Source: an uncultured Chloroflexia bacterium (GTDB taxonomy: Bacteria; Chloroflexota; Limnocylindria; Limnocylindrales; CSP1-4). Taken from it: DNA of 64,000 nt. The translations under genes were made by a program, and so were the position numbers. Shown in pieces: positions 2,406-25,886 of this stretch; positions within the stretch are counted from its first letter, which is position 1; every line of letters starts with the position of its first letter. The stretch is taken from the NCBI GenBank assembly GCA_963712745.1, contig CAVQJC010000004.1, forward strand, positions 64,001-128,000. Direction: 5' to 3'. Below the pieces are notes generated by a model, which made no database searches, was not told the DNA's origin, and saw nothing but the letters and a program-made list of their open reading frames with translations.

Positions 2406-3758
2406 TTACCAGGTGCAGACACCATCGTCGTCGCACTCGGCTTCGGACTTGGCTATATCGAGGATCTCGAGGCCCTGCTGGGGATCGAGGTACACGATGT
2501 CACCCTTCGTCCCATCGTCGTTGAAGGGGGTGTACGCCGGGGTCACGGCGTTGACGCCGGTCTCGGTGTAGGTGGCGGGTCCGGTCGCGCCTTCGTAGTT
2601 GATCTCCTTGCCCTCGCGCAGGAGGGCCAGGCAGTCGGCGTACAGGTAGCAGGCCTCGCCAGACTCGTCACCGACCGCGTACATGGCCGGCACCCAGTCA
2701 CTAACGTTGTACGATCCGGCCTGCTCGATGGCCAGAGCCGTATGGACCAGGAGGTCGTAGCCCGAGAACGCGTACGGGGTCGTCGCATCGTAAGGCGGGC
2801 ACTCGGCCACGCCCTCGGTGCAACCCTCCTGCGAGTTCCAAAGCTCCTCGTAGAACTGCCAGCCCGGCGAATCGAAATTGGGCGCGAAGGCGGCGAAGCC
2901 GATGGCCTCCTGCGTGGGGATCGGATCAGTCCCGAGTGAGCCGATGAACTCGGCCTCGCTCCAGCCGGTCTCACCGATCCAGTTGAGCGCCAGGCCGGCC
3001 TCCGCCGCCGCCTTGATCAGGTTGGCGGATTCCACCGATCCCGCCTGGACGAGGACGGCGTCCGGCTCCAGGTCGAAGATCTTCTGGGCCTCGGCCCGGT
3101 ACGACGCCTGCTCGGCCGGGGCGTCGATCCGCTCCAACACGTTCAGGCCGAGGGCCTCCGCAGCCTTCTCCTCCGCGTTCGCCGCCAGCTGGAAGCCCTC
3201 CACCTCGGTGGCAAAGATCACGACGTCCTCGGCGCCGATCGAGTCGGCGTACAGAGCCCCGGCGACGCCGAGCATGTCGTCGACACCCTGGGCTCGGAAG
3301 AGCGGCTCTTCGACGCTTCCGCCGAGGTTGCCCGGGATGGCCCCGCCGTGGATGGTCGGCGCGAGCGGCGCGTCGTTCTCTGCCCACTGCTCGAGCATGT
3401 AGTCACGGTAGTTGCGGTACTGGTGGGCCATGCTCACGATGATCTCGGCACCGTGCTTCTCGATGCACGTCCTCGCCGCCTGACCTTCCATGTCGTCCCC
3501 GATGTCCTCGGAGATGAGCACCCAGGGGCGACCCAGCGGCGGGTCGGTGTTGATGACTTCGTCGATGACGAAGCGCACATCGTTGGTCAGGCTGGGCCCG
3601 TACGACGCGAAGCTTCCGGTGTAATAGGCGAGCTCGCAGACTTCGATCGGATCAGCTTCCTCCTGCGCCGCGACGCCCACGCTGAGCGACGTGGCGAGGA
3701 GGGTCGCTCCGGCGATCGACGCCGCGAGGCGGCCTGCTTGCTTAGTCCTGGAGTTCAT
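2406..3758 (-). CDS. ABC transporter substrate-binding protein, LivJ/K-like (periplasmic binding protein type 1)
   Basis: Signal peptide ending VAAQ; LIV-type features (YTGSFASYGP, SYRAEAQK, INYEGATG); last gene of the LIV-type operon. Confidence 0.82.
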   Translation of the reverse strand: MNSRTKQAGRLAASIAGATLLATSLSVGVAAQEEADPIEVCELAYYTGSFASYGPSLTNDVRFVIDEVINTDPPLGRPWVLISEDIGDDMEGQAARTCIEKHGAEIIVSMAHQYRNYRDYMLEQWAENDAPLAPTIHGGAIPGNLGGSVEEPLFRAQGVDDMLGVAGALYADSIGAEDVVIFATEVEGFQLAANAEEKAAEALGLNVLERIDAPAEQASYRAEAQKIFDLEPDAVLVQAGSVESANLIKAAAEAGLALNWIGETGWSEAEFIGSLGTDPIPTQEAIGFAAFAPNFDSPGWQFYEELWNSQEGCTEGVAECPPYDATTPYAFSGYDLLVHTALAIEQAGSYNVSDWVPAMYAVGDESGEACYLYADCLALLREGKEINYEGATGPATYTETGVNAVTPAYTPFNDDGTKGDIVYLDPQQGLEILDIAKSEAECDDDGVCTW

Positions 3759-3803
3759 GAACGTTATCCTCCTGCTGTGGCCTGGACCGAGGTCATGCGC
3801 GTA

Positions 3804-4520
3804 TCAGATCCGGTAGCCCTCCTTTAGCTGCTGTGTCGTGATGTCTGCGGCGTCTACGACCGCGGTGGATTCTCCAAGATTGAGGACCATGACCCGGTCG
3901 GCTACCTGCAAGGCCTTGGTGGCGTTCTGCTCAGCGAGCACGATCGCGACCCCACGAGAATCGTGCATCTCACGGATCTTGTCCATGAACAGATCGACGT
4001 ACAGGGGCGAGAGGCCCGCCGTCGGCTCGTCGAGGAGCATCACCTTGGGGTCCTGCATCAGGGCACGCCCACAGGCGACCATGCGCGACTCGCCGCCACT
4101 CAGGGTCCCCGCCGACTGCTTGAGCTTGGTCTTGAGATCGGGGAAGAGCTCGAGCACCTCGTCCGTGCGTTCGTCCTGCGAGCGTGTGCCGATCATGGCC
4201 CCCACCTGCAGGTTCTCGAGCACGCTCAGCTCCGGGAAGACGCCCTGCTCCTGGGGGACGTAGGCGATGCCTCGGGCCGCGGTCTCGAACGCGGGGACGT
4301 TCGAGACGTCCTGGCCCAGGAACCGGATCGAGCCGCCCATGAGCGGGATGAGGCGAGCAAGGGTGGCGAGCAGCGTGGTCTTCCCGGCTCCGTTGGCGCC
4401 GAGCACGGTGAAGACCTCGTGGCTGACCTGGAACTCGAGTCCCTTGAGCACTGTCACACCGTGGTAGCCGCTGCGCAGGTCAGCGACCTCGATGAGAGGC
4501 TGCGTAGTGGGATCAGACAT
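3804..4520 (-). CDS. ABC transporter ATP-binding protein, LivF-like
   Basis: Walker A GANGAGKT, signature LSGGE, Walker B LLDEP; start MSDPTT at 4520. Confidence 0.9.
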   Translation of the reverse strand: MSDPTTQPLIEVADLRSGYHGVTVLKGLEFQVSHEVFTVLGANGAGKTTLLATLARLIPLMGGSIRFLGQDVSNVPAFETAARGIAYVPQEQGVFPELSVLENLQVGAMIGTRSQDERTDEVLELFPDLKTKLKQSAGTLSGGESRMVACGRALMQDPKVMLLDEPTAGLSPLYVDLFMDKIREMHDSRGVAIVLAEQNATKALQVADRVMVLNLGESTAVVDAADITTQQLKEGYRI

Positions 4521-5310
4521 GACCCTCTCCCAGGTACTTCTCCACCACCGTGCGATGCTCACGGATCGACTCGGGAGGGCCATCCAGGACGACCTTGCCC
4601 TCGGCCATGAAGTGGACCTTGTCGCACACGCTCCAGATGACGTTGAGGTCGTGTTCGACGATGACCACAGAGGTGCCCTCGGCCGCCAGCCCACGCATCT
4701 CGTCCATGACCTTCTCGGTCAGATCTTCCGGCAATCCCGCGGTCGGTTCGTCCATGAGCAGGAACGTGGGCTTGAGCAGCAGGCAGCGCACGATGTCGAG
4801 CAGCTTCTTCTCGCCTGCCGACAGGGCGTACGTGGTGGGGTCGTCGAAGCCGAAGAGGTCGAGGTAGTAGCGCATCTCCTCCTCGTGCGCTTTGAAGACC
4901 GTCTTCTCCGACAGGATGCGGTAGGGCTGTTCGAAGCTCGACTCGGTCACCGAGAGCAGCAGCGAGTCCCAGATGGTCAGCTTGTCGAAGTCCATGATGA
5001 CCTGGTTGGACTTGACCACGCCATGGTGCGCGATCCGCTGGGCGGGCTGCGATGAGAGCACGACCTGATCTCCGCTCGGGAGGCTGAGCGTGACGCTCCC
5101 CCGGTCGAGGGGGATCGAGTGCATGACCATGCGCATCAGCGTGGTCTTGCCGGCACCGTTGGGCCCGATGAGGCCTTCGATCGGCTGCTCGCCCAGGGTC
5201 AGATCATCGACGTCCACGACTACACGCCCGGAGTAGGACTTGGCTGCGTTCTTCACGTGGATGCGCGGACGCGTGACGGCGGCGGGGGTGGCGACGGCGT
5301 CACTTGCCAT
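4513..5310 (-). CDS. ABC transporter ATP-binding protein, LivG-like
   Basis: GPNGAGKT, LSAGE, LMDEP, VEHD, C-terminal VVEKYLG. Confidence 0.9.
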   Translation of the reverse strand: MASDAVATPAAVTRPRIHVKNAAKSYSGRVVVDVDDLTLGEQPIEGLIGPNGAGKTTLMRMVMHSIPLDRGSVTLSLPSGDQVVLSSQPAQRIAHHGVVKSNQVIMDFDKLTIWDSLLLSVTESSFEQPYRILSEKTVFKAHEEEMRYYLDLFGFDDPTTYALSAGEKKLLDIVRCLLLKPTFLLMDEPTAGLPEDLTEKVMDEMRGLAAEGTSVVIVEHDLNVIWSVCDKVHFMAEGKVVLDGPPESIREHRTVVEKYLGEGHV

Positions 5311-6247
5311 GGAGCTTCCTCATGAGCTTGTCTCGACGCATGTCGCCGAGGACGCCGAGCGGCCGGAAGACCAGGACCACGATGAGGGCCGCACCAAAGA
5401 TCGCCTCCCGCATGACCGGGATGGTCTGCGTGTACCACTCCCGGGGCAGCGGCAGATACGACTGGACCAGGATGTCGAAGAGCCCCACGGTCAGGACGAC
5501 GCCGACCACGGCACCCCAGACGCGCGCGCTCCCGCCCAGCACGAGCCCGACCATCGCTGCCAGGGTCACGCCCACGCCGATCTGACCGACGTCGAGGAAG
5601 CGCAGTTGGACGCCCGCCAGCGCCCCGAGCAGCCCCATCGCGCCCGAGGTGACCGCGAACAGGCCGACCTTGGCGCGGAACGTGGACTTGCCCAGGCTTC
5701 TCGCCAGCGGCTCGTTGGAGCCCATGCCGATGAGCAGTCGGCCGTAGGGCGATCGATGGACCTGTCTGGCGAACAGGAAGATGACGACCACGACCGCAGT
5801 GACCACGAGCAGCCAGGCGAATTCGTCCTCCTTGACCTTGCCCACGTCGAACGGGATACGAAGCCCGCCCAGGCCGCGAGATCCGCCGGTCCACTGGTCC
5901 TCGGTGGTCGCCAGGATCTGGACGGCGGCCGCGAAGCCGAGCGTGGTCACGAGCACGCCGTCGGTGTCCTGGTCAGAGATGAACCAGCCCACGATGACAC
6001 CGGCGATGGCGGTGACGACGGTGGCGATGGCGGTGCACACGAGGAACTGCCAGGGGTCGCCGAAGGGCCAGTCGACCTGGACGTAGAGCACGCCGAACAC
6101 GAACATGCCCAGGCCCCAGAAGCCGACCACGCCGAAGTTGGCGATACGGGTCAGGCCCAGCTGTAGGTGCAGCAGCAACGCCAGGCCGGTGACCATGACG
6201 ACCTGGAAGAGGCCGGTGATCAGGAAGGAGTCGAGCCAGTCGAGCAC
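5300..6247 (-). CDS. Branched-chain amino acid-type ABC permease, LivM-like
   Basis: Multi-TM protein; NFGVVGFWGLG, TGGSRGL, SPYGRLL motifs. Confidence 0.88.
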   Translation of the reverse strand: MLDWLDSFLITGLFQVVMVTGLALLLHLQLGLTRIANFGVVGFWGLGMFVFGVLYVQVDWPFGDPWQFLVCTAIATVVTAIAGVIVGWFISDQDTDGVLVTTLGFAAAVQILATTEDQWTGGSRGLGGLRIPFDVGKVKEDEFAWLLVVTAVVVVIFLFARQVHRSPYGRLLIGMGSNEPLARSLGKSTFRAKVGLFAVTSGAMGLLGALAGVQLRFLDVGQIGVGVTLAAMVGLVLGGSARVWGAVVGVVLTVGLFDILVQSYLPLPREWYTQTIPVMREAIFGAALIVVLVFRPLGVLGDMRRDKLMRKLHGK

Positions 6248-6251
6248 GGCG

Positions 6252-7124
6252 CTACACCTTTACCGTCTCAGCCAGCTTGTGGCCCCGCCACTTGAGCAGG
6301 AGGATGAAGCCGACGATCAACACCAGGTGTGAATAGAGGATGTGTTCGAACGTGAGCGCCATGGCCGTAAGTGCGATGCCAGTGGCGAGGCCCACGGCGA
6401 TGACACCTCCAAGGCCCCACGCACCGCCGACGAGGACCACCAGCAGGATGAACAGGAACTGCTGCCAGCCGAGCAGCGGAGCCACTGACGAGCTGACGCC
6501 GTAGAACGCACCCGCCAGGCCGGCGGCGACGCCGGCCACGAACCAGATGATCATCGTGACCGTCAGGGGCCGGATGCCGCTCACCTGGGCCAGGTTCTCA
6601 TCGGCAGCGAGCGCACGTGCCTGCAGCCCGTATTTCGAGCGCCGGATGAAGAGATAGATCAGCAGCGCCAGGATGATGACGGTCACCAGTGCTACGAGTC
6701 TGAACGATGAGATGCCGACGTCGAGGATGTAGATGGTGTCGGCCGGCGGGACGTCGAAGAAGCGCCGCGGGTAGCCGAAGATGAACTGGAGCCCGTGGCG
6801 CAGGAAGATGGAGAGGCCGAAGGAGATGATGATCATCTCGAGCGCGCCCACCCCGCGCTGCTTGGCCGGGCGGAAGATGAGCAGGTAGGTGGCGACCGAT
6901 AGGATGCCGCTGAGGATGGCGGTGGGGATGAGGACGGCGAAGAAGTCGAGCTCGAAGGTCGTGTTGAGCCACATCCCGAAGTACGCGCCGAGCGTGATCG
7001 TCTCCGAGTAGGCCACGTTGATGAGGCCGGTCAGGCGATAGATCAGCGCGAAGCCGATGGCCGCCAGCACGAGCGGAGCATGCTCGGTGAGGCCGATGAC
7101 GACCGACTGCGCGATGAAGTCCAT
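6252..7124 (-). CDS. Branched-chain amino acid-type ABC permease, LivH-like
   Basis: LAAIGFALIYRLTGLINVA and SKYGLQARALAADENLAQVSGI motifs. Confidence 0.88.
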   Translation of the reverse strand: MDFIAQSVVIGLTEHAPLVLAAIGFALIYRLTGLINVAYSETITLGAYFGMWLNTTFELDFFAVLIPTAILSGILSVATYLLIFRPAKQRGVGALEMIIISFGLSIFLRHGLQFIFGYPRRFFDVPPADTIYILDVGISSFRLVALVTVIILALLIYLFIRRSKYGLQARALAADENLAQVSGIRPLTVTMIIWFVAGVAAGLAGAFYGVSSSVAPLLGWQQFLFILLVVLVGGAWGLGGVIAVGLATGIALTAMALTFEHILYSHLVLIVGFILLLKWRGHKLAETVKV

Positions 7125-7211: not shown

Positions 7212-8177
7212 TCAATCGCAACTCGTCACCGGTCCGTCGCTGGCAAGCAGTTTGAGCACCCGTTGGGCCACCCGCTCGGCGGAGAGACAGTACATGTCGA
7301 GCAGCTCCTCGTCGGTGGCCGACTCGGTGTAGTGGTCCTGGATGCCGATGCGGTCGACCCGCGTGGGCCGGTGCTCGGACAGCGTCTCTGCCACGGCCCC
7401 GCCGAGGCCGCCGATGACGGTGTGCTCCTCGACGGTCACGACGCGCCCGGTGCGCCCGGCGGCCTCGACGATGCCGGCCACGTCGAGCGGCTTGATGGTG
7501 GGCACGTGCACGACGTGGGCCTCGATGCCGCTCCCCGCGAGGATGTCGGCGGCGTCGACCACGCGCGGGGTCTGGGTGCCGGTACTGATCAAGGTGATGT
7601 CGGAGCCCTCGCGCACGACCTTGACCTTGCCGAACTGGAACTTGTGCCCCGGCGCGAAGAGCTGCTGGGTCACGTCGCGCACGAGACGGATGAAGACCGG
7701 GCCGTCGTACTCGAGCGACCAGGCCAGGACGGCCTTGGTCTCGACCTCGTCGGCGGGGCTGATGACGACCATGCCGGGCATGGCCCGCGCGATGCTGATG
7801 TCGTCGACGATCTGGTGCGTCTTGCCGGCCTTGCCGGTGAAGAGCCCGCAGTAGCCGGCGGTGATCTTGACGTTGGCCCCGGTCTGGGCGATGAGCACGC
7901 GGATCTGGTCCAGCGGCCGATGCAGGGCGAAGGCCACGAAGGTGCTGATGAAGGGCACGAGGCCGACCTTGGCCATGCCCGCGGCCACGCCCAGCATGTT
8001 CTGCTCGGCGATGCCCATCTGGTAGAAGCGATCGGGGTAGGCGTCCTCGAAGAGCTTGGCCTGGGTCGAGCTGCCGAGGTCCCCGTCGAGCACGACGATG
8101 CGCGGATCGCGGGCCGCCAGCTCGGTGACGGTCTCACCGAACACGAGGCGCAGCGGCTTGCCTTCTGGGAGCGTCAT
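7212..8177 (-). CDS. Transketolase, C-terminal (pyrimidine-binding) subunit
   Basis: GIAEQNM, GKTHQ, TIKPLD, VEEH motifs. Confidence 0.93.
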   Translation of the reverse strand: MTLPEGKPLRLVFGETVTELAARDPRIVVLDGDLGSSTQAKLFEDAYPDRFYQMGIAEQNMLGVAAGMAKVGLVPFISTFVAFALHRPLDQIRVLIAQTGANVKITAGYCGLFTGKAGKTHQIVDDISIARAMPGMVVISPADEVETKAVLAWSLEYDGPVFIRLVRDVTQQLFAPGHKFQFGKVKVVREGSDITLISTGTQTPRVVDAADILAGSGIEAHVVHVPTIKPLDVAGIVEAAGRTGRVVTVEEHTVIGGLGGAVAETLSEHRPTRVDRIGIQDHYTESATDEELLDMYCLSAERVAQRVLKLLASDGPVTSCD

Positions 8178-9061
8178 GCAGCACCTCCCTCAGGCTCGCC
8201 GAGCTCGGCCATGGCGATGGCGAACTCCTCGTCGGTGGGCACACCCATGTGCCACTGGTAATTGCCGGCCATGTAGCTGACGCCATAGCCCTTGAGCGTG
8301 TTGGCGATGACCGCGGTCGGGCGGCCGGTGGGCTCAGCGGCGGCCTCGAGCACGCGCACCACCTCGACCATGTCGTTGCCGTCCATCTCTAGCACCCGCC
8401 AGCCGAAGGCTGTGAAGCGGGCCACCAGGTCGCCGGGTTCCTCGGGCGGCAGGCGGTCGGTGGCCGACTCGCCACGCCAGCCGAACTGCTGGAGCCTGTT
8501 GTGGTCGACGATGGCGATGAGGTTGTCCGCCCTGTAGCGCGGCGCCACGTGGGCGGCCTCCCAGACCTGGCCCTCCTGGCACTCGCCGTCACCGAGCAAC
8601 ACGTACGTCAGGAACTCCTGGCCCAGGTGCCTCGCGCCCAGGGCCATGCCCAGACCGGCAGACAGGCCCATGCCCAGCGAGCCGGTCGAGATGTCGATGC
8701 CGGGCAACTTGTTCATGTCGGGATGGCCCTGCAGGCGCGCGCCCTTCTTGTTGAAGGTCGACATCTCCGCGAGCGGGAAATAGCCCGCCAGCGCCATGGC
8801 AGCGTACTGGCCCAGCGCGGAGTGGCCCTTCGACAGGATGAAACGGTCGCGATCTGGCCAGTCGGGCTCGCCGGGGCGGATGCGCAGGATGCGGCCGTAC
8901 AGCGCGGCCAGGATGTCGGCAGCCGAGAGGGGCCCGCCCACGTGGCCGACCTTGCACTCCGCGACGGTACGGATGACCGCCACACGGATGCGCCGGGCCA
9001 TGTCCTCCAAGCGCGCGATCTCGCCGGCCGGCACGCTGCCGGCTGCCATATCGGCGGTCAT
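8174..9061 (-). CDS. Transketolase, N-terminal (ThDP-binding) subunit
   Basis: GHVGG, RDRFILSKGH, LQGHP, STGSLG, GDGE...N ThDP motif; ATGA overlaps with neighbours. Confidence 0.93.
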   Translation of the reverse strand: MTADMAAGSVPAGEIARLEDMARRIRVAVIRTVAECKVGHVGGPLSAADILAALYGRILRIRPGEPDWPDRDRFILSKGHSALGQYAAMALAGYFPLAEMSTFNKKGARLQGHPDMNKLPGIDISTGSLGMGLSAGLGMALGARHLGQEFLTYVLLGDGECQEGQVWEAAHVAPRYRADNLIAIVDHNRLQQFGWRGESATDRLPPEEPGDLVARFTAFGWRVLEMDGNDMVEVVRVLEAAAEPTGRPTAVIANTLKGYGVSYMAGNYQWHMGVPTDEEFAIAMAELGEPEGGAA

Positions 9062-9429
9062 GCCGACCCGTTGCCTTTCTCGTAGGAGCCGGGCACGACG
9101 GGTGGGCTGAAGAAGCAGGCGATCTCGAGCGGCTCGGGCCCGTCCGACTCGGTGGCGTGCGGCGTCCCGGGACTGACCCAGACCGCGACCCCGGGCTCCA
9201 TCTCGGCCACCCCATCGGGCGTGACGATGCGGCCGCGGCCACTGACGCAGTAGATCGTCTCCTCCTGGATGTCGTGTACGTGTCCTTCCGGCGCAGAGCC
9301 TGCGGGGAAGACCGAGACGCCGAATGAGATGCGCTCGGTGGCGATGTTCTCGGGCCCGAGGTACGTATGCCAGTCACGACCGGGGAGGGGATAGACCTCG
9401 GCCTCCCCGCGTGACACGCGCTTCATCAT
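9058..9429 (-). CDS. Cupin domain protein
   Basis: HVHDIQEETIY...G and PGTPH cupin metal motifs; GAGGT SD before ATG 9429. Confidence 0.85.
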   Translation of the reverse strand: MMKRVSRGEAEVYPLPGRDWHTYLGPENIATERISFGVSVFPAGSAPEGHVHDIQEETIYCVSGRGRIVTPDGVAEMEPGVAVWVSPGTPHATESDGPEPLEIACFFSPPVVPGSYEKGNGSA

Positions 9430-9496
9430 CAGTGCACCTCGTTGCATCCCTGTGCCACCTGTTCTCGCAGCGTCGGTCCCTCCACGAACCGTCACA

Positions 9497-9538
9497 ATCG
9501 ATTATCGAGGATACGCTTTTCGGGCAAGCCAATGTCAA
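9497..9538 (-). promoter_or_regulatory. Putative leftward sigma70 promoter (TTGACA/TATCCT) abutting operator TCGATTATCGA
   Basis: Minus-strand TTGACA 9538-9533 and TATCCT 9513-9508 (19-bp spacer, long); palindrome at 9498-9508. Confidence 0.55.
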
Positions 9539-9676: not shown

Positions 9677-9726
9677 TTGACGGTCGTAGGCTGGGACGCG
9701 TATGGTCATCGGTAATCGATTATCTA
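9677..9726 (+). promoter_or_regulatory. Putative rightward sigma70 promoter (TTGACG-18-TATGGT) followed by two overlapping imperfect TCGATnATCGA operators
   Basis: TTGACG 9677-9682, TATGGT 9701-9706, TCGGTAATCGA 9709-9719, TCGATTATCTA 9716-9726. Confidence 0.62.
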
Positions 9727-9906
9727 TGAGTCCGGCCCGGCACCGCCCGGGCGGACACAGGGGTGGAGGGTTGCCGCTGGCGCACCTGTCGTGATTCGGC
9801 TCGGGCTGAGGGGCCGGGGCCACGGGCGTACACCATGGCTCGGAGGGAGCCGATGTCAGGGACCGGTCGTGGAGGACGATCGGCATACCAAGGAGGCGAA
9901 CGACAG

Positions 9907-11649: not shown

Positions 11650-11669
11650 AGGATCGAGCAGCCGCGGCC

Positions 11670-12386: not shown

Positions 12387-12408
12387 CCCCAGTACGCGAA
12401 AGGACACC

Positions 12409-13299: not shown

Positions 13300-13319
13300 G
13301 CAGATCCCGGAACAGGCCG

Positions 13320-16935: not shown

Positions 16936-16961
16936 CCAGCACCAGGACGAGGAGGAGAGAG

Positions 16962-17870: not shown

Positions 17871-17901
17871 CCCAGTCCAGCCAGTCGAACCCGGAAGGAG
17901 C

Positions 17902-19532: not shown

Positions 19533-20103
19533 GCTGGCTCTCCATTGCGCCCGGCGGGGCGGCATCTGCCCCGGCGACAGCGTGGTCGTCATGGGCGCCG
19601 GGCCGGTCGGTCTCCTGGCGGCTGACGCGGCCCTGGCCGTGGGCGCGGGCCGGGTCATCGTGGTCGGACGCGGGCCGCGTCTGCAGAAGGCTCTGCAGAT
19701 GGGTTTCATCGGCCTGGACAGCAACGCGGTGGAGCCGGCAGAGGCGGTGCGTGAGCTCACGCACGGGTTCGGCGCGGACGTCGTCATCGAGGCGGCCGGT
19801 ACGCCGACCACGCTGCAGTGGTCCCTGGCGGCCCTGCGCAAGGGTGGCCGCATCGCCGCGGTCGGCATCCCCGCGGAAGGCGTTACGATCGACATGCGAG
19901 AGCTCGTGCTCTACGAACTCGAGATCGCCGGCTCGCGCGCCTCTGCCGGTGAGATGCGCCGGGTGATGCCGCTCATCGCTGATGGGCGCATCCGTTTGCG
20001 CGAGATCATGACCCACCAGTTCGCGCTGGCTGACTTCGGCGAGGCCCTGGCCACATTCCGAGATCGCTCCAGCGGGGCGATCAAGATCACCATCAAGCCG
20101 TAG
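19048..20103 (+). CDS. Zinc-binding (MDR) alcohol/polyol dehydrogenase, copy 2
   Basis: N-terminus identical to copy 1; GAGPVG Rossmann motif; divergent C-terminal half. Confidence 0.9.
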   Translation: MTETMQALVVLGPEKFEIGEVPVPEPGPMEVLCRVKAVSICGTDSHLIAGDYPGFWPPAFPIIPGHEWSGEIVKLGPGAEKAGWQLGDRVAGTSHDACGVCQPCVEGRYNLCENYGVMDLHRQYGHNYQGADAEYVVHGVKCIFPLPDTVSWEEGAVIDPASLALHCARRGGICPGDSVVVMGAGPVGLLAADAALAVGAGRVIVVGRGPRLQKALQMGFIGLDSNAVEPAEAVRELTHGFGADVVIEAAGTPTTLQWSLAALRKGGRIAAVGIPAEGVTIDMRELVLYELEIAGSRASAGEMRRVMPLIADGRIRLREIMTHQFALADFGEALATFRDRSSGAIKITIKP

Positions 20104-20123: not shown

Positions 20124-22256
20124 ATGAACTGGTCGTTCGCATTCGATCGTCCGCCGCAGTTGAGCGCCGACGAGCTGAGAGCCTTGCTCGGCGGCAAGGG
20201 TGCGAACCTCGCGGTGATGACGACCGAGCTGGGCCTGCCGGTGCCACCCGGTTTCGTCATCTCCACCGACGCCTGCAAGGCCTACATGCGCGATGGCTGG
20301 CCCCCCGGCCTCGACGATGAGCTGCGAGTACAGATGGCGCGCATCGAGCAGCAGGTGGGCCGTCGTTTCGGCGACGCGGGCGATCCCCTGCTGGTGAGCG
20401 TGCGCTCGGGGGCGCCGGTATCGATGCCGGGCATGCTCGATACCATCCTCAACCTCGGGCTCAACGACCAGACCACGGCCGGTCTCGGGCAAGCCGCCGG
20501 TGACGTTGAGTTCGCAGGTGCCTGCCGGAAGCGACTCGAGGCCATGTACCGTGACATCGTCGGGGTCGAGGAGGTGCCGGCCGATCCGTGGGCCCAGCTG
20601 CGTGCCGCCGTGGAGTCCGTGTTCCGCAGCTGGGACAGCGACCGGGCGCGCAGCTATCGCGAACGCGAGTCCATCGCGCCCGACCTGGGTACCGCCGTGG
20701 TCGTGCAGGCCATGGTCTTCGGCAACCGCGGGCCCGACTCCGCGACCGGTGTGCTCTTCACGCGCAACCCGGCCACGGGCGAGAACACGCTCTACGGCGA
20801 CCTGCTGTTCGGTGCCCAAGGCGAGGACGTCGTCGCCGGCACGCACGCGACCGAACCGATCTCGGCGCTCGAAACGCGGCTGCCCGGCGTGGCCATGGAG
20901 CTGCGTTCCTACGCCGACCAGCTCGAGCATCACTACGGCGACATCTGCGACATCGAGTTCACCATCGAAGAAGGTCGCCTGTGGATGCTCCAGAACCGCA
21001 TCGGCAAGCGCACCGCGCAGGCAGCCTGCCGCGCCGCGGTCGAGATGGCCGAGGACGAGGCCTTCCCGTTGTCACGACCGGAGGCGGTCGAACGCGTGCG
21101 GGAGATCCTGGTGGATCCGCCGGTCATCGCCGCCGAGATGAGCGGCAACGTCGAGATCGTGGCGGCCGGGCTGGGAGCCTCGCCGGGGCTGGCGACCGGC
21201 GCTATCGCCACCACTCCCGAAGCTGCCGTTCGCATGGCCGCGGCCGGCACGGACGTGCTGCTGGTCCGCGCGGAGACCTCGCCGGACGATGTGCACGGCA
21301 TGGCCAAGTCGGTGGGCATCCTGACCTCAACCGGCGGCCTTGCCTCTCACGCGGCCGTGGTCGCTCGTGGCTGGGACATCCCGGCCGTGGTCGGCGCGAT
21401 CGGCGTGGTCGTGGGCGAAGGCGGCGTCGCCATCGCCGATACGCTCTACCGAGAAGGGGACGTCATCAGCATCGACGGCAGCACCGGGGAGGTCTACGGA
21501 GGCCCGGTCGAGTCGATGACGACGGTGGTGCCCGAAGCTGCCATGCTCATCGCCTGGGCCCGGGAGCTGGGCATCGAGATCGCACAGCCACATGAGTCGG
21601 AGGAGGGCAGCGCCGTGGTCTCTGCAGGTGAGGGCGATGTGGCAGCCGAGGATGTCGTTCGCGTGCTCGCGATCAAGGGCTATGTGATGCCTGACATGCT
21701 GGCGCCTGCGCTGGGCGTCAGCGCCGATGAGACACAGCAGCAGCTTGACCGGCTGGCAGCGGACGGCATCGTCAAGGAATCCGGTGGCATGTTTAGCCTG
21801 ACCGATGACGGCAAGGCCCTGGGAACCGAGATGATCGCGGCCGACCGCGAGGCCTGGGGTGCGGAGAATGCGCTCGCCGCGCTCGATGCCTTCCTTGTGC
21901 TCGACAGCCAGATGAAGACGATCGTGACCGCCTGGCAGATGAAGGAGGTCGGCGGTGAACAGGTGCTCAACGATCACACCGACGCCGAGTACGACGCGGG
22001 CGTCCTCTCGCAGCTGGCCGCGCTCCACGTCGAGGCCACGGCCTGGATCGCGCCGCTCTATGCCGGGCTGGCCCGGCTGGTGGCCTACGGCAAGCGGCTG
22101 GACGTAGCGGCAGAGGCGGCTGCCGCCGGCGACGGGATGTACATCGCCTCACCGCGGGTCGACAGCTACCACGGGGTCTGGTTCGAACTGCACGAGGATC
22201 TCATCCGCCTGGCCGGCCGCACGCGCGAGGACGAAGTCGCGGCCGGCCGCGCCTGA
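20124..22256 (+). CDS. Truncated pyruvate,phosphate dikinase-like protein (ATP-grasp + phospho-His domain) fused to a C-terminal wHTH/helical domain
   Basis: LLGGKGANLA, VSVRSGAPVSMPGMLDT, QAMVFGN, QGEDVVAG, DIEFT, GGLASHAAVVARG; no pyruvate-binding TIM barrel; ends DSYHGVWFELHEDL. Confidence 0.85.
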   Translation: MNWSFAFDRPPQLSADELRALLGGKGANLAVMTTELGLPVPPGFVISTDACKAYMRDGWPPGLDDELRVQMARIEQQVGRRFGDAGDPLLVSVRSGAPVSMPGMLDTILNLGLNDQTTAGLGQAAGDVEFAGACRKRLEAMYRDIVGVEEVPADPWAQLRAAVESVFRSWDSDRARSYRERESIAPDLGTAVVVQAMVFGNRGPDSATGVLFTRNPATGENTLYGDLLFGAQGEDVVAGTHATEPISALETRLPGVAMELRSYADQLEHHYGDICDIEFTIEEGRLWMLQNRIGKRTAQAACRAAVEMAEDEAFPLSRPEAVERVREILVDPPVIAAEMSGNVEIVAAGLGASPGLATGAIATTPEAAVRMAAAGTDVLLVRAETSPDDVHGMAKSVGILTSTGGLASHAAVVARGWDIPAVVGAIGVVVGEGGVAIADTLYREGDVISIDGSTGEVYGGPVESMTTVVPEAAMLIAWARELGIEIAQPHESEEGSAVVSAGEGDVAAEDVVRVLAIKGYVMPDMLAPALGVSADETQQQLDRLAADGIVKESGGMFSLTDDGKALGTEMIAADREAWGAENALAALDAFLVLDSQMKTIVTAWQMKEVGGEQVLNDHTDAEYDAGVLSQLAALHVEATAWIAPLYAGLARLVAYGKRLDVAAEAAAAGDGMYIASPRVDSYHGVWFELHEDLIRLAGRTREDEVAAGRA

Positions 22257-22285: not shown

Positions 22286-23578
22286 ATGCCGACGCAAGCA
22301 GAGCTCGAAGTCGCGACGCTGGGGTCCGCCCGCTTCGATTCGCCGCTCGTGGCCAGGGGCCGGCGACTCCCGGACCCTGAGTTGCGTGTCCGCTACCAGG
22401 CCCGAGAGGGTTCGGCCGAACTGGAGGGAGAGGACCTCTTCCTCGAGAAGGCCGGACCACGCGAGAAGCTGTACTTCGACCCAGCCGGGACGACGGCTGC
22501 TTTCGTCACCTGTGGCGGTCTCGCCCCGGGCCTGAACAACACCATCCGCTCGGGTTTCTACGAGCTCCTTCACAACTACGGCGTCAAGCGCGTCCTCGGC
22601 ATCCGCAACGGCTACCAGGGCCTGGTGCTGTCCGAGGGCCTTGAGCCCATCGTGCTCACGCCAGACATGGTCGATGACATCAACGACCTGGGCGGGACGG
22701 TGCTGGGAACCTCGCGTGGCGGCCGCGACCCAGCAGAGATCGTCGACTTCCTCGAGGCGCACGCCATCGACATCCTCTTCTGCATCGGCGGTGACGGCAC
22801 CCAGCGTGGTGCCCACAGCATCGAGCAGGAGGTGCGCGCTCGCGGCGGGAAGCGTTCCATCGTGGGCATCCCCAAGACCATCGACAACGACGTGCCCTTC
22901 GTCTACACCAGCTTCGGCTACGCGACCGCGCTCGAGGAGGCAGCGCAGATCCTGCGAGGCGCGCACGTGGAGGCCAAGAGCCACAGAAGCGGGATCGGCC
23001 TGGTCAAACTCATGGGCCGGGACGCCGGCTTCATCACGGCCGGCGCCGCCATCGCCAGCCAGGAGGCCAACTTCGTGCTGGTCCCGGAGGTCCCCTTTCC
23101 GCTCGACGGCCCCTCCGGCTTCCTCGAGGTGCTCGAGCGACGCATGATCGAGCGGGACCACGCGGTCGTGGCCGTGGCCGAGGGGGCCGGTCAGCACCTG
23201 TTCGAGAGCGGCGACGCCACGGTCGATGCCTCGGGCAACCGCCGCTATCGGGATATCGGCGTCTTCCTGCGCGACCGCATCCGCCAGCACTTCCGTGAGC
23301 GGGAGATGCCGGTCACGGTCAAGTATTTCGATCCCAGCTACGCCATCCGCAGTGTGCCGCCCAATGCCTTCGACCGCATCCTCACCGACCGCATGGCGCG
23401 CAACGCCGTGCACGCGGCCATGGCCGGCAAGACCGACGTGATGGTGGGCTCGTGGAACCAGGCCACGATCTGGGTGCCCATCGCTGCTGCGGTCGCCGAA
23501 CGTAAGAACATGTCACCCGACGGCGACATCTGGCGCGCGGTCCTCGCCACGACCGGCCAGCCGAACTGGGGCGGTTGA
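22286..23578 (+). CDS. pfkA: 6-phosphofructokinase, long PfkA clade, probably ATP-dependent
   Basis: TCGGLAPGLN, GGDGT, PKTIDND, MGRDAG, DPSYAIRS; Gly in GGDG suggests ATP use. Confidence 0.88.
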   Translation: MPTQAELEVATLGSARFDSPLVARGRRLPDPELRVRYQAREGSAELEGEDLFLEKAGPREKLYFDPAGTTAAFVTCGGLAPGLNNTIRSGFYELLHNYGVKRVLGIRNGYQGLVLSEGLEPIVLTPDMVDDINDLGGTVLGTSRGGRDPAEIVDFLEAHAIDILFCIGGDGTQRGAHSIEQEVRARGGKRSIVGIPKTIDNDVPFVYTSFGYATALEEAAQILRGAHVEAKSHRSGIGLVKLMGRDAGFITAGAAIASQEANFVLVPEVPFPLDGPSGFLEVLERRMIERDHAVVAVAEGAGQHLFESGDATVDASGNRRYRDIGVFLRDRIRQHFREREMPVTVKYFDPSYAIRSVPPNAFDRILTDRMARNAVHAAMAGKTDVMVGSWNQATIWVPIAAAVAERKNMSPDGDIWRAVLATTGQPNWGG

Positions 23579-23719
23579 AGCGGGCCTCATCGCATCGCCC
23601 TTCGAGGAAGCGTCTTTGAGCCGCCGTCGCATCGCCGCGCGTCAACCGTCAATGACGGACTGCCCTCCGCGTGCAGCGAGACTCGCGCACCGGACGCGGT
23701 GATTGAGCGGGCGTCCTGA

Positions 23720-23983
23720 ATGGGTACGTCTGGAACGCTCGCTGCCGATGGGATCGCCATCTCCACCGAGACGAACGCCATCGAGAACGAGGGCGGCACC
23801 CGGCGCTGCATCCAGCAGTTCGGCGAGACAGCAGCCCCCATCGAGGAGGGGACGCACTCTCTTCTGCTCTCGGGGGAAGGAGGCGATGAAGGGCTGACGG
23901 CGGTCATCGTCTACACGGGGCCTGGGACCGCCACGGGTGCCATCCTGTCGCGTCCGATCCCTGGGCCGGCGGGATCGCAGTAG
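23720..23983 (+). pseudogene. Decayed fragment of the 'ENDDG...GEGAYEGL' extracellular domain family
   Basis: IENEGGTR and LSGEGGDEGLTAVI resemble VENDDGAW/GEDAYEGLS (26178 ORF) and TNDDGYW/GRGAYEGLS (35303 gene). Confidence 0.45.
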
Positions 23984-24117
23984 CTCCGGTCAACGATCTC
24001 CGACTGCCGACTGGCGCCGCACCGTGCCGGCTGGACCAAGCCAGCTCCACGAGGGCCGGACCTCCCGTGTGTCGATGAGAGTCGTCGCACGGACACCACC
24101 ACCGAGCACTCAGGATA

Positions 24118-24149
24118 TGAAGAAGCCCCGCCGGATGGACCGGCGGGGC
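24118..24149 (-). terminator. Intrinsic terminator for the SDR-MBL unit
   Basis: GCCCCGCCGG-ATGGA-CCGGCGGGGC stem (24125-24149) followed by TTCTTC on the minus strand. Confidence 0.7.
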
Positions 24150-24184
24150 GGTGCGCTGGGGCCACTGGGGCGTGGAGGTGAGTA

Positions 24185-25054
24185 TCAGTCCTTCTTGTCG
24201 GTCATCTGGTCCCAGAGGGCGCCGGCGTTGTGGGACATGATGTAGTCCATCATGTACTCCTGACCGATGTCGACCGGAAAGCGCTCCTTGAGGTTGACGC
24301 GCTCCTGGGTCTCCTCGCGGGAGAGGCCTTCGGCCACGGCCGCAGCGACGCGTGACTTCCACTCCAGCAGGATGGCGCGCTGGTCATCGAGCGACGAGCG
24401 GTCGGTCAGCGGTCCGTGGCCCGGCACCAGGTGATCGAAGTCGAGCGCGCGGATGGTCTCCAGCGCGGCCAGCCAGCCGTCCACATCGGATGTCATCAGC
24501 CACGTCTGACACTGGTTGAAGATGGTGTCACCGGTGAAGACGACGCCCTCCTCGGGCACATGCACGGCGATCTGGCCCGGCGTGTGGCCAGCCACGTGGA
24601 TGAGGTCGAAGTGGGTATCGCCCACCCGCAGCTTCAGATCGCCGGTGAAGACGATGGCGCCGTCGTTGGGCTCGCGGTAGTACTCCTCGCGCTCGGGGAA
24701 GATGGCCACGCCCTCGGGGTCGTCGGTCGGAAGGGCCTCCTCGGCATAGGCGAAGGGGTCCAGGATCGGCGCGACCACCATGTAGTTGTCGGCCACGCCC
24801 TTGTGGTGGACCACAGGCACCGGCTTGAAGTAGTAGTTGCCGAAGATGTGGTCGACGTGGTGCTCGGTGTTGATGACGTAGCGGATGGGGCCGTGCGTTT
24901 CGGCCTGCTCGCGCATGGCCACCGCCTTGGTCGGCAGCTGAGGGGTGTCGACCACGACGACCCCGTCCGAGGTGACCACGTAGCTGGGGTTGCAGCCACG
25001 GATCCTGGTGTTCGAGTAGACGTTGGCAGTGACCTGCTCCATGGGCGGCTTCAA
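24185..25054 (-). CDS. MBL-fold metallo-hydrolase (cyclase-like subgroup)
   Basis: VVVDTP, NTEHHVDHIFGN, GHTPG, FTGD, VPGHG. Confidence 0.9.
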   Translation of the reverse strand: MKPPMEQVTANVYSNTRIRGCNPSYVVTSDGVVVVDTPQLPTKAVAMREQAETHGPIRYVINTEHHVDHIFGNYYFKPVPVVHHKGVADNYMVVAPILDPFAYAEEALPTDDPEGVAIFPEREEYYREPNDGAIVFTGDLKLRVGDTHFDLIHVAGHTPGQIAVHVPEEGVVFTGDTIFNQCQTWLMTSDVDGWLAALETIRALDFDHLVPGHGPLTDRSSLDDQRAILLEWKSRVAAAVAEGLSREETQERVNLKERFPVDIGQEYMMDYIMSHNAGALWDQMTDKKD

Positions 25055-25100
25055 GGTCGCGGTTCCTCCCCGGGGGTATGTACTGAGTTGGCCCGGCGCG

Positions 25101-25886
25101 CTACTGGGTCGCGGTCAGTCCGCCGTCGATGCCCAGGATCTGGCCGGTGATGAACGATGACGCGTCAGAGACCAGGAAGATGGCCGCGCCCACGAGGTCG
25201 CTCGTGCCACCCACGCGCCCGAGCGGGATGCGTGCCACCACGCCCTTCTTGAACTCTGGATCCTCGAGCAACATGGCCACCTGTGGCGTGTCCACGAAGG
25301 TGGGACTGATGGCGTTGACGTTGATGCCGTACTTGGCCCACTCGGTGGCCCACTGGCGCGTGAGCGAGCTGATGGCGCCCTTGGCCGCGACATACGCCGA
25401 GTAGCCGGCGTTGATGCCGAGGGCGGCCCGCACCGAACTGATATTGAGCACCTTGCCGCCGTTGCCCGCCTCGATCATGGCCTTGACCGCGGCCTGGGTG
25501 GGCACGAGCGTGCAGCGCACGTTGATGTCGTAGATCCAGTCCCAGGCGTCGTCGGGGTAGTCCTGGGCCTCGAAGAGGACCTTCCCGGCGCCGCCGCCGA
25601 TAGCGTTGACCATGATGTCGAGCCTGCCCAGGTGGTTCACCACCTCGTCGACGACCGCGTCCGCTTCGTCGCGCTTGGTCATGTCGCCAGCGACGGCAAG
25701 GCATTCGCCACCGACCGCCTCCACCCTGGCCCTGGTGGCATCGACCAGCTCCTGGCTGATGTCGGTCACGGCGATCTTCGCACCGGCCTCTGCGAGGGCG
25801 ACGGCCATGGCGCCACCGATAGCCCCGCCTCCGCCACCGATGAACGCGACCTGGCCATCGAGCTTGAACCTGTCCAGCTGACCCAT
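25101..25886 (-). CDS. SDR family oxidoreductase (gluconate 5-dehydrogenase/KduD-like)
   Basis: GGGGAIG, NISS, YVAAK, NAISP, ITGQILGIDGG; GGAGG SD before ATG 25886. Confidence 0.9.
   Translation of the reverse strand: MGQLDRFKLDGQVAFIGGGGGAIGGAMAVALAEAGAKIAVTDISQELVDATRARVEAVGGECLAVAGDMTKRDEADAVVDEVVNHLGRLDIMVNAIGGGAGKVLFEAQDYPDDAWDWIYDINVRCTLVPTQAAVKAMIEAGNGGKVLNISSVRAALGINAGYSAYVAAKGAISSLTRQWATEWAKYGINVNAISPTFVDTPQVAMLLEDPEFKKGVVARIPLGRVGGTSDLVGAAIFLVSDASSFITGQILGIDGGLTATQ

Follow-up and report, generated by a model that had tools for sequence, protein, structure and literature searches.

The stretch analysed here, called the window below, comprises 64,000 nucleotides (nt) of contig CAVQJC010000004.1 in assembly GCA_963712745.1, from an uncultured Chloroflexia bacterium of the order Limnocylindrales. 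Towards its left end lie two divergent operons and a distal gene pair (Table 1). On the forward strand they encode a PpsA/HpeH-like dikinase component, a GntR regulator, a P-loop protein, a xanthine dehydrogenase (XDH)-family molybdenum (Mo) hydroxylase and a protein derived from pyruvate-phosphate dikinase (PPDK); on the reverse strand follow an ABC importer, a split transketolase and a cupin, and, at the distal end, two further enzymes. We called genes by scanning the open reading frames (ORFs) of the window with Pfam and NCBIfam and took solved relatives from profile searches of the PDB. An original prediction, made from the sequence alone, had described an unknown catabolic system with dikinase-type activation under one GntR regulator, acting on a compound with both a heterocyclic and a sugar-like part; every gene that it named was recovered in our scans. 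The window has a G+C content of 65-73%, and its remainder is ordinary chromosome, with genes for an Lhr helicase, GroEL, trigger factor, ClpP/ClpX and a tRNA synthetase.

To collect relatives, we made a profile from alignment A2 of the PpsA-like protein and searched with it a collection that has a single genome for each species. At least 599 stretches matched the profile, at least 529 were confirmed as relatives, and the best 80 were kept as loci (L numbers below): about 49 from Chloroflexota, 24 from Actinomycetota, 3 from Pseudomonadota, 1 from Bacteroidota and 3 unplaced. Their gene content was read from tblastn matrices, with the window proteins and neighbouring proteins found in the loci as queries. 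Counts given below without another denominator refer to these 80 loci; co-occurrence of the core genes was counted in the 41 that have full 10-kb flanks. Loci whose XDH Mo subunit is at least 50% identical to that of the window are referred to as type A (n = 44), those below 50% as type B (n = 15). Close homologues (80-94% identity) of the PpsA-like and P-loop proteins, where named, are proteins of Chloroflexota metagenome-assembled genomes, mostly of Candidatus Limnocylindrales.

Table 1. Genes and operator sites of the cluster, in window coordinates
Position	Strand	Feature	Domain match or remark
1451-2317	-	Calcineurin-like phosphoesterase (Metallophos)	Pfam PF00149, E 1.3e-9
2406-3758	-	Substrate-binding protein of LIV-type ABC importer	Pfam Peripla_BP_6, E 2e-17
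3804-5310 (ORFs 3804-4694, 4513-5310)	-	Two ABC ATPases	Pfam ABC_tran
5300-7124 (5300-6247, 6252-7124)	-	Two LIV-type permeases	Pfam BPD_transp_2
7212-8177	-	Transketolase C-half, separate gene	Pfam Transket_pyr + Transketolase_C
8174-9061	-	Transketolase N-half, separate gene	Pfam Transketolase_N
9058-9432	-	Small metal-binding cupin, first gene of leftward operon	Pfam Cupin_2, E 2.5e-11
9497-9509	.	Operator copy 1, ATCGATTATCGAg	Upstream of cupin operon
9708-9727	.	Operator copies 2 and 3, overlapping	About 180 nt upstream of PpsA-like start
9907-11649	+	PpsA/HpeH-like dikinase component, 580 residues	Pfam PEP-utilizers swivel domain at C terminus
11670-12386	+	GntR/FadR-type (FCD) regulator	Pfam GntR + FCD; in 63/80 loci
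12409-13299	+	Uncharacterised P-loop protein (GESNHGKS), 296 residues	No Pfam or NCBIfam match
13320-14189	+	XDH-family Mo hydroxylase, FAD subunit, 289 residues	Pfam FAD_binding_5 + CO_deh_flav_C
14189-14665	+	XDH 2Fe-2S subunit	Pfam Fer2 + Fer2_2
14662-16935	+	XDH Mo subunit	Pfam Ald_Xan_dh_C + MoCoBD_1/2
~16962-17870	+	Cyclase-family metal hydrolase	Pfam PF04199, E 8.3e-23
17908-18966, 19048-20103	+	Two Zn-dependent dehydrogenases	Pfam ADH_N + ADH_zinc_N
20124-22256	+	PPDK-derived ATP-grasp + swivel protein, 710 residues	Pfam PPDK_N + PEP-utilizers only
22286-23578	+	ATP-dependent 6-phosphofructokinase	NCBIfam NF005301 (PRK06830 type), 573.6 bits, cut-off 400
24185-25054	-	Metallo-beta-lactamase-fold hydrolase	Pfam Lactamase_B; PDB 8d2z (unnamed member of the fold), E 5.7e-15
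25101-25886	-	Short-chain oxidoreductase, KduD/gluconate-5-dehydrogenase type	Pfam adh_short_C2
25950-25962	.	Operator copy 4, ATCGATTATCGAc	64 nt upstream of the short-chain oxidoreductase start

A putative dikinase pair and the molybdenum hydroxylase

The PpsA-like protein ends in a swivel domain with the motif TDAGGTVSH, in which His539 stands 41 residues from the C terminus; G534, G535 and H539 are invariant in alignment A2. It thus has the H-type swivel domain, with a T/SxxGGxxxH motif (defined in PMC12167813) fewer than about 50 residues from the C terminus. According to that source, HpeHI, CreHI and PpsAB phosphorylate phenolic hydroxyl groups: HpeI is an ATP-grasp protein, HpeH combines a RIF-binding-like domain with the swivel domain, and the beta-phosphate of ATP passes to the histidine and on to the phenolic hydroxyl. 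CreHI and PpsAB are described there as homologues of HpeHI, the characterised members being about 45% identical to each other. Residues 380-580 of the window protein align with residues 682-866 of rifampin phosphotransferase (RPH; 5fbs/5hv1), the RPH matches beginning at residue 380; PigC/RedH models align from about residue 160-180, and the N-terminal part is covered by the precomputed PF27448 only. The NCBIfam matches (PRK08296, PigC/RedH and RPH) all stay below cut-off, and Hpe-type plasmid proteins of Rhodococcus and Rhizobium share 30-38% identity only over the C-terminal 34-58%. Judged from these comparisons, the protein appears to carry the H-component hallmarks of the two-component phenolic dikinases, to whose clade its relation is distant. 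Plasmid pRlBT01c of Rhizobium leguminosarum (L085) has at 10894-20053 a complete Hpe-like set, which looks like a hydroxyphenylethanone pathway: besides a PEP-utilizing enzyme and a PPDK_N protein it encodes a biotin carboxyl carrier and biotin carboxylase, a HAD hydrolase, a CoA ligase and one hypothetical protein.

The second protein of the putative pair is PPDK-derived. True PPDK structures match it at 388 bits up to about residue 481, that is, over the ATP-grasp and swivel domains, and NCBIfam NF004531 does so at 483 bits (cut-off 456). The swivel histidine, at about residue 409, lies in the motif TSTGGLASH. The TIM barrel that binds phosphoenolpyruvate (PEP) and pyruvate in PPDK was not found by Pfam or in the PPDK structure alignment, which ends near residue 481. 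In its place stands an extension of about 230 residues (~481-710), composed of a winged helix (DtxR/MarR-like winged helix-turn-helix match, E 1e-4) and a conserved helical domain with the invariant motifs NDHxD and DSxHxxWFELHE and a conserved C-terminal AxGRA. In 34 related loci the PPDK-like gene encodes this C-terminal domain as well. It is also 38% identical (E 1e-36) to a free-standing 206-residue protein on a Diaphorobacter plasmid, whose gene lies between those of a PEP-utilizing enzyme and a 506-residue truncated PPDK, among genes for aromatic ring-hydroxylating dioxygenases and with no XDH; a three-part kinase therefore exists outside this lineage. On that plasmid (Diaphorobacter sp. 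HDW4B, NZ_CP049906.1; L082) the stretch 10212-15012 runs through a DUF7065 protein, the PEP-utilizing enzyme, the 206-residue homologue and the truncated PPDK.

Like HpeHI, CreHI and PpsAB, the window thus has a PpsA-like protein with a C-terminal T/SxxGGxxxH swivel and a separate ATP-binding component. In those systems the latter is an I-type protein of about 40 kDa consisting of the ATP-grasp only; in contrast, the partner in the window is a 710-residue protein whose ATP-grasp is of the PPDK type rather than the PEP-synthase type, and which has its own swivel histidine and the extra domain. The enzyme that comes next also differs, being a Mo hydroxylase in place of a carboxylase or a P450. 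An ATP-grasp partner occurs in 36 of the 41 full-flank loci, as the PPDK-like form in 23 and as a PPDK_N-only form in 13, never as both together; over all 80 loci the PPDK_N-only form replaces it in 17. It is chiefly from this mutual exclusion that we argue for the PPDK-like protein as ATP-binding partner of the PpsA-like one. The regulatory Thr that PPDK and PEP synthase have two residues before the histidine is absent from both swivel motifs: the PPDK-like protein has Ala there and the PpsA-like protein Val (HpeH has Met). Control of the swivel domains by a PDRP-type protein, which we considered, is therefore unlikely. With PPDK the window protein shares the part up to residue ~481 and differs in lacking the barrel, in the Ala for Thr and in the winged-helix and helical C-terminal domain. 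RPH is likewise built of ATP-grasp, substrate-binding and swivel-histidine modules, but as a single chain serving antibiotic resistance, whereas in the window the corresponding modules would be split over two proteins within a catabolic regulon.

Pfam identified all three subunits of an XDH/CODH-family enzyme. Among solved structures the Mo subunit is closest to the alpha subunit of 4-hydroxybenzoyl-CoA reductase (4-HBCR; 313.6 bits), then to quinoline 2-oxidoreductase (233 bits), followed by XDH, 6-hydroxypseudooxynicotine dehydrogenase and nicotinate dehydrogenase, with aldehyde oxidoreductases further down (~176-187 bits). The best NCBIfam match is again 4-HBCR alpha, with 454.6 bits under a cut-off of 994.55. 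Among plasmid sequences, the nearest XDH relative (39.7% identity) is in Variovorax, where it is accompanied by genes for an SRPBCC protein, FAD and 2Fe-2S subunits, an FAD-monooxygenase, an isochorismatase, an alpha/beta-hydrolase and a 'leucyl aminopeptidase', a cluster that we take to be of the pyridine-carboxylate/maleamate type. A second relative, from Alicycliphilus, adjoins a LIV-type ABC importer.

A genetic precedent links such a hydroxylase to a kinase pair. In Ensifer adhaerens HP1, HpdA1-4 converts 3-hydroxypyridine to 2,5-dihydroxypyridine only together with orf9, annotated as 'pyruvate-phosphate dikinase', and orf10, annotated as 'PEP-utilizing protein mobile subunit' (10.1101/2020.01.08.898148). 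That report describes loss of growth on 3-hydroxypyridine in a knock-out of either gene and leaves the role of the kinase genes open; it also places GntR and ABC transporter genes in the 3hpd cluster and related clusters in Gaiella, Solirubrobacterales, Thermoleophilia and proteobacteria. By gene content and annotation the window resembles the 3hpd cluster, with XDH subunits beside PEP-utilizing- and PPDK-annotated genes, a GntR regulator and an ABC importer, and our type B loci come from the groups for which 3hpd-related clusters were reported. It differs in its 710-residue partner with an additional swivel and C-terminal domain, in the P-loop gene before the XDH genes, and in the added genes for transketolase, cupin, Zn-dehydrogenases and the distal pair. 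Thus the dikinase-type activation suggested in the original prediction has direct precedents (PMC12167813; 10.1101/2020.01.08.898148). By the same token its statement that the combination is no described pathway was too strong: a Mo hydroxylase with a kinase pair, GntR and ABC genes is known for 3-hydroxypyridine, and phenolic dikinases have been characterised. Since the core of kinase and Mo hydroxylase has a genetic precedent and the kinase family has been studied biochemically, the claim of an undescribed system is reduced.

Related loci and a common operator

The core of the system is conserved as a unit, as the original prediction would have it: of the 41 full-flank loci, XDH subunits are present in 38-40 and GntR, like the ATP-grasp partner, in 36. 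The type A order is PpsA-like, GntR, P-loop, XDH FAD, FeS and Mo subunits, optionally cyclase and Zn-dehydrogenase, and PPDK-like, with the metallo-beta-lactamase-fold protein (MBL) and the short-chain oxidoreductase (SDR) mostly within 10 kb. Divergently upstream, type A loci often have a transaldolase (TAL; 21/44) with an aldehyde dehydrogenase and the cupin (12/44) with a split transketolase (TK; 10/44), and in some (8/44) the LIV importer is encoded there. Type B was seen in Gaiellales, Solirubrobacterales, Thermoleophilia, Thermogemmatispora and Devosia, among others, and also on the Thermomicrobium roseum megaplasmid; it keeps the PpsA-like protein (~55% identity), GntR and XDH and adds a PPDK_N-only ATP-grasp (13 of 15), a short cyclase (13), ABM (9) and FAH (8) proteins. 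CoxG/SRPBCC genes occur in six loci, all of type B, a DUF4202-like protein in 11, and histidine-phosphatase genes in seven, some of them type A. The positions of the TK and ABC genes differ between genomes. The T. roseum megaplasmid (L001, 7490-9593) has a further phospho-related pair that is uncharacterised, a Tm-1-like UPF0261 ATP-binding protein and a PEP-hydrolase-like protein, whose genes separate the ABC importer from GntR.

TAL is encoded in 29 loci. This transaldolase paralogue scores far below the cut-offs of canonical models, and in four loci it stands alongside a second, more conserved TAL. The adjoining aldehyde dehydrogenase, of which the L015 copy was scanned, matches CoA-acylating methylmalonate-semialdehyde dehydrogenase (MMSDH) at 617 bits (cut-off 448.5); copies at least 60% identical to that of L015 are present in nine loci.

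The GntR protein is presumed to bind an ATCGAT-T-ATCGAT operator, as co-occurrence suggests. Exact copies of the 10-mer ATCGATTATC stand at 9497, 9715 and 25950 of the window, with a one-mismatch copy at 9711 on the reverse strand. Allowing one mismatch, the 13-mer ATCGATTATCGAT has 130 sites in the 1,399,936 nt of the window plus the 80 loci, where mononucleotide shuffles give a mean of 0.2; since the window supplied the pattern, its own four sites are present by construction. Only 5 of the 130 lie inside labelled genes. Assigning a site to a gene when it lay within 450 nt upstream, we found the operator before the PpsA-like gene in 50 of the 81 sequences, and before genes for TAL in 14, SDR in 12, the cupin in 9, an ABC permease in 6, an unannotated 260-residue ORF in 6, a second GntR in 5 and the PPDK-like protein in 4. 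Such sites are present in type A and type B loci alike. The recurrence of one operator before the PpsA-like, cupin/TK, TAL, ABC and SDR units supports the prediction of a single GntR regulon, and through it the cupin-TK-ABC operon and the distal SDR-MBL pair belong to the system; that this pair shares the operator, as had been proposed, is seen in the exact copy 64 nt before the SDR gene and in its recurrence in the relatives.

The window cluster has one GntR gene only. In several Limnocylindria a second GntR paralogue accompanies the cupin-TK operon, beside the gene for the TK C-half (L003, L014, L038, L045 and L078), and in L011 it stands beside an aldehyde dehydrogenase gene. The 260-residue ORF, matched by neither Pfam nor NCBIfam, is a repeated neighbour of the system (L015:8884-9666), with homologues in 10 loci, for example L019:1489-2037 and L008:1045-1743; it was not found in the window.

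The P-loop gene is tied to the hydroxylase by position. Where it is present (41 of the 80 loci) it ends 6-47 nt before the XDH FAD-subunit gene in 37; the other four have no same-strand match to the FAD subunit, and three of them are short contigs. Among the full-flank loci it occurs in 20, never with the PPDK_N-only form, and in several type B loci its position is taken by the DUF4202-like ORF. The family, with the motif LFLGGESNHGKSMGQIEACRRGG, counts 2909 homologues, all unnamed or 'hypothetical'. The label 'HprK-like' given in the original prediction was not borne out: scans with Pfam and NCBIfam, relaxed to E<=1 to 10, gave no match to the catalytic C-terminal domain of HprK. Three weak signals, mutually consistent, all fall on the P-loop region of ATP-dependent phosphoenolpyruvate carboxykinase (PEPCK): a PDB profile match of the protein (E 0.12), an hhalign comparison of the family (E 0.014, probability 3%) and the Pfam family PEPCK_ATP in 4 of 21 members (best E 0.088). 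The protein is possibly of the PEPCK/HprK fold. Because of its place before the XDH FAD gene and the exchange for the DUF4202-like ORF in type B, we lean towards a hydroxylase-linked role, as a fourth, phosphate-ester-handling component or a maturation factor; a regulator of the kinase seems less likely. Compared by hhalign with E. coli PpsR (PDRP type), the family showed no similarity (E 0.33), and eight longer, apparently fused proteins, several with FCD and/or FAD_binding_5, each come from one contig and were set aside as gene-call read-throughs. Searched with tblastn against plasmids, the protein had no match, and BLASTP gave no similarity to a 304-residue protein encoded upstream of the Diaphorobacter kinase genes.

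Accessory enzymes and the edges of the regulon

The cyclase-family hydrolase, present in 24 loci, has as its best PDB match 5ibz, which is uncharacterised, and reaches arylformamidase at E 6e-5. Enzymes of this family hydrolyse ring amides, for example that of isatin. One member, dihydrophloroglucinol cyclohydrolase, is reported to open a carbocyclic 1,3-dione by retro-Claisen cleavage (PMC10470551). With that enzyme, isatin hydrolase and kynurenine formamidase the window protein shares PF04199 and a place in a catabolic operon beside dehydrogenases, but it has no close characterised relative; it is a candidate ring-opening enzyme that could hydrolyse a C-N or a C-C bond.

In the leftward operon, the cupin translation has a readable HxH...E motif, and the protein may be either an isomerase or a dioxygenase. 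The TK halves score below cut-off against the full-length TK models of NCBIfam and are found in 11-12 loci. For the binding protein, homologues of which occur in 10 loci, the PDB search gave no relative at E<=0.001. The longest ORFs of the two ABC ATPases overlap, so that the true start of the first is probably internal. Eighty-nine nt downstream of the binding-protein gene lies the Metallophos gene; it has homologues in four loci, in L040 adjoining the PPDK-like gene. Its product is a candidate phosphatase and may, with weak support, be counted to the regulon. A gene of the histone-deacetylase family (acetylpolyamine/acetoin-type amidohydrolase; 105-1454) converges on it where the cluster ends to the left.

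TK- or TAL-dependent cleavage of unusual ketoses is a feature of the sulfo-TK and sulfo-TAL pathways and of the IolB/IolJ/IolA steps in the breakdown of inositol. In logic alone the system resembles these, with its split TK and small cupin, a possible isomerase, and in relatives TAL and the aldehyde dehydrogenase under the same regulator, where the MMSDH/IolA-type enzyme implies a (methyl)malonate semialdehyde product. It differs in having no sulfoquinovosidase, no sulfonate exporter and no inositol dehydrogenase/dehydratase set.

Both Zn-dehydrogenases match scyllo-inosose 3-dehydrogenase IolM best in NCBIfam, at 205-221 bits and below cut-off, and also resemble threonine dehydrogenase. Their genes share 491 identical nt in the 5' parts (17902-18392 = 19042-19532), and the 3' halves have diverged, with 24-42 of 50 residues identical per block; the repeat may stem from gene conversion, a recent duplication or an artefact of assembly. 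L019 and L008, which are the closest relatives, have one Zn-dehydrogenase, and in both MBL directly follows the PPDK-like gene, with 92 nt in L019 between the PPDK-like C terminus (21180) and the MBL match (21272). The second Zn-dehydrogenase and the phosphofructokinase (PFK) are therefore window-specific insertions. PFK, which the original prediction had counted as part of the system, was found in none of the 80 loci, although in the window it is probably co-transcribed with the rightward operon. Beyond it some 600 nt (23579-24184) are free of ORFs with a coding signature, none of the ORFs at 23587-24362 showing the coding pattern of third-position G+C; the PFK insertion seemingly brought or left a non-coding spacer.

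MBL, encoded in 25 loci, could be a lactonase, a phosphoesterase or another hydrolase. A phosphatase role like that of HpeD was rejected, HpeD being described in PMC9618137 as of the HAD/NagD type and not an MBL. For SDR the best PDB matches are 2-deoxy-D-gluconate 3-dehydrogenase and gluconate 5-dehydrogenase. We also considered a vitamin B6-type substrate, itself a 3-hydroxypyridine, with SDR and MBL as pyridoxal dehydrogenase and pyridoxolactonase and with GMC genes in five loci, and rejected it as too weakly supported: MBL matches 4-pyridoxolactonase at E 4.7e-5 with 23 bits (cut-off 325), and pyridoxal 4-dehydrogenase is not named among the 60 SDR matches listed. Directly after the regulon stand UreG/CobW-like and UreE genes (26520-27727), with no urease structural genes among the Pfam-scanned ORFs of the window. 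Farther right the Lhr-type helicase gene (29087-33770) appears split over two overlapping ORFs, with the last winged-helix domain (WH4_Lhr) in a second frame (32637-33770), which may be due to a frameshift or a sequencing error.

A possible route and its rivals

We propose that the cluster forms a catabolic regulon under GntR control, directed at a small ring compound whose hydroxyl is acidic, as in a phenol or an enol. A hydroxylated N-heteroaromatic is the likeliest candidate, and we put the probability of this reading at roughly 0.45. The LIV-type ABC system would import the compound. A split small-molecule dikinase would then phosphorylate the ring hydroxyl, the PPDK-derived ATP-grasp protein binding ATP and the phosphoryl group travelling via the swivel histidines to a putative substrate-binding domain in the PpsA/HpeH-like protein, a mechanism transferred from HpeHI, PpsAB and RPH. 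By turning the electron-donating phenolate into an aryl phosphate, this step would leave the ring carbon beside the heteroatom open to nucleophilic Mo-OH hydroxylation by the XDH-family enzyme; such a rationale would account for the genetic dependence of the Ensifer 3-hydroxypyridine hydroxylase on its kinase pair. We hold it somewhat more likely than not that these two steps describe a Mo hydroxylase assisted by a kinase, with a ring hydroxyl compound as substrate.

The phosphate would subsequently be removed, with MBL, Metallophos, the histidine phosphatases of the relatives and the P-loop protein as candidates; phosphorylation, transformation and dephosphorylation in this sequence are the logic shown for the Hpe pathway (PMC9618137). 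SDR and Zn-dehydrogenase would adjust the redox state, and the cyclase-family hydrolase would open the ring. The resulting omega-hydroxy-keto acid might be cut by ketol or dihydroxyacetone transfer, through the split TK and cupin here and also through TAL in relatives, to give sugar phosphates and (methyl)malonate semialdehyde, which the adjacent CoA-acylating MMSDH of the relatives would oxidise. Release of (methyl)malonate semialdehyde by TAL or TK would imply a substrate of the form HOCH2-CO-CHOH-(CHOH)-CH2-COO-, as from an opened, partly reduced 5- or 6-carbon ring, which is attractive as chemistry but which we infer entirely from the enzymes. From the redox adjustment onward we regard this sequence as doubtful.

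Several observations weigh against the proposal. The PpsA-like protein is far from the characterised kinases, about 35% identical at most to Hpe-type plasmid proteins and below cut-off in NCBIfam. The partner keeps its own swivel histidine, unlike HpeI and PpsB, which makes the phosphotransfer route between the two swivel domains ambiguous; the PPDK-like protein might even have a different function. The solved enzyme closest to the Mo subunit, 4-HBCR, is a reductive dehydroxylase, and models of glyceraldehyde dehydrogenase also score well. No SRPBCC/CoxG component was found in the window by tblastn with two CoxG queries, and the whole-window Pfam and NCBIfam scans contained none of the maleamate-pathway genes, that is, 2,5-dihydroxypyridine dioxygenase, deformylase, amidase or isomerase. 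TAL and MMSDH were not found in the window by tblastn. Finally, SDR, Zn-dehydrogenase, TK and TAL are typical sugar enzymes, so that the substrate could be a sugar or a cyclitol; TK, TAL, the KduD-like SDR, the IolM-like Zn-dehydrogenase and the MMSDH of the relatives can equally be read as processing an opened ring.

The last point leads to an alternative without an aromatic ring, in which the dikinase would act on a ketose or enol in a sugar, sugar-acid or cyclitol pathway, XDH would serve as an aldehyde oxidoreductase like glyceraldehyde dehydrogenase, and TK or TAL would cleave the (phospho)ketose. The affinities of the Zn-dehydrogenases to IolM and of SDR to KduD and gluconate 5-dehydrogenase agree with it, as does the XDH gamma subunit, whose 192.9 bits against glyceraldehyde-dehydrogenase gamma are level with XdhC. 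TAL and TK stand under the same operator, and MMSDH adjoins TAL, an arrangement reminiscent of IolA in inositol catabolism; some loci further add PfkB and Cgl0159-like, GFO/IDH/MocA, DeoC or GMC genes. However, the Mo subunit is nearer to 4-HBCR and quinoline oxidoreductase than to aldehyde oxidoreductases, the importer is of the LIV rather than a sugar type, and type B exchanges the sugar enzymes for FAH, ABM and the short cyclase while keeping kinase, XDH and operator. All characterised relatives of the PpsA-like protein, taken from PMC12167813 and the NCBIfam matches, act on aromatic or enolic ring hydroxyls, in phenols, rifampin and prodigiosin precursors. We consider this alternative unlikely, if by no means negligible.

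The original prediction had favoured a heterocycle conjugated to a sugar or polyol (nucleoside-like, a flavin or another glycoconjugate), degraded by two enzyme sets under one regulator. The presence of XDH and cyclase together with TK, TAL, Zn-dehydrogenase and SDR under one operator across many genomes is what it would lead one to expect, and GMC oxidoreductases in five loci and a xylose-isomerase-like TIM barrel in L035 also fit, both families acting on glycosides. Yet no glycosidase, nucleoside hydrolase, phosphorylase or C-glycoside lyase is found among the recurrent or labelled regulon members, PFK is not conserved, the importer is neither sugar- nor nucleoside-type, and type B has kinase, XDH and operator without any sugar enzymes. 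A conjugate appears improbable.

Less credible still is reductive chemistry, in which the phosphorylated hydroxyl would be a leaving group removed by the XDH-family enzyme in the manner of 4-HBCR, before the ring is reduced and hydrolysed. The Mo subunit does match 4-HBCR alpha best among both structures and NCBIfam models, and SDR with the cyclase mirrors the phloroglucinol reductase and dihydrophloroglucinol cyclohydrolase described in PMC10470551. Against this, the 289-residue FAD subunit matches XdhB at 171 bits and 4-HBCR beta at 113 bits in two stretches, and the regulon has no genes for a ferredoxin or another low-potential donor. The 4-HBCR beta subunit carries an extra 4Fe-4S insertion. 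Moreover, the sole genetic precedent for a kinase with an XDH, as reported in 10.1101/2020.01.08.898148, is a hydroxylation. That the locus is just a set of unrelated neighbouring operons, as the variable positions of PFK, the second Zn-dehydrogenase and the TK and ABC genes might suggest, is scarcely tenable given an operator conserved across phyla and core genes that co-occur in nearly all full-flank loci.

Returning to the kinase-assisted ring pathway, what is new is the fusion of a PPDK-derived ATP-grasp and swivel protein to a winged-helix and helical domain, the placing of an uncharacterised P-loop gene just before those of XDH, the link with transketolase, to which relatives add transaldolase and (methyl)malonate-semialdehyde dehydrogenase, and the breadth and conservation of the regulon over at least four phyla. 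For the type A gene set we found no description in the open-access literature, the only literature covered, which is weak evidence of absence. Taken together, these features might define an undescribed route for hydroxylated heteroaromatic or enolic rings in Chloroflexota, Actinomycetota, Pseudomonadota and Bacteroidota. It would include a new three-part dikinase (PPDK-derived ATP-grasp/swivel, winged-helix/helical domain and PpsA-like protein) that enables Mo hydroxylation, and a PEPCK/HprK-like P-loop protein as a fourth, phosphate-handling partner of XDH, perhaps recovering the phosphate by phosphorolysis. Ring opening would be hydrolytic, with no ring-cleaving oxygenase, and TK and TAL would deliver carbon to the pentose-phosphate pool, leaving (methyl)malonate semialdehyde. 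We advance this joint picture tentatively, as one that is rather unlikely to be right in every part.

In conclusion, catabolism that starts by phosphorylating a phenolic hydroxyl has been recognised only recently, and its use to prepare a ring for a Mo enzyme is little studied. The conserved natural data set described here, at least 529 relatives of which the best 80 were examined, makes the need of a Mo hydroxylase for a kinase testable. The sharp operator, the regulator and the binding protein offer handles, the latter two for a ligand search. The system brings forward two uncharacterised families, the P-loop protein and the C-terminal domain of the PPDK-like protein, and links ring catabolism unexpectedly to TK and TAL. 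Furthermore, since it is conserved at 80-91% among abundant freshwater and soil Limnocylindria, its substrate may make up a relevant part of dissolved organic matter.

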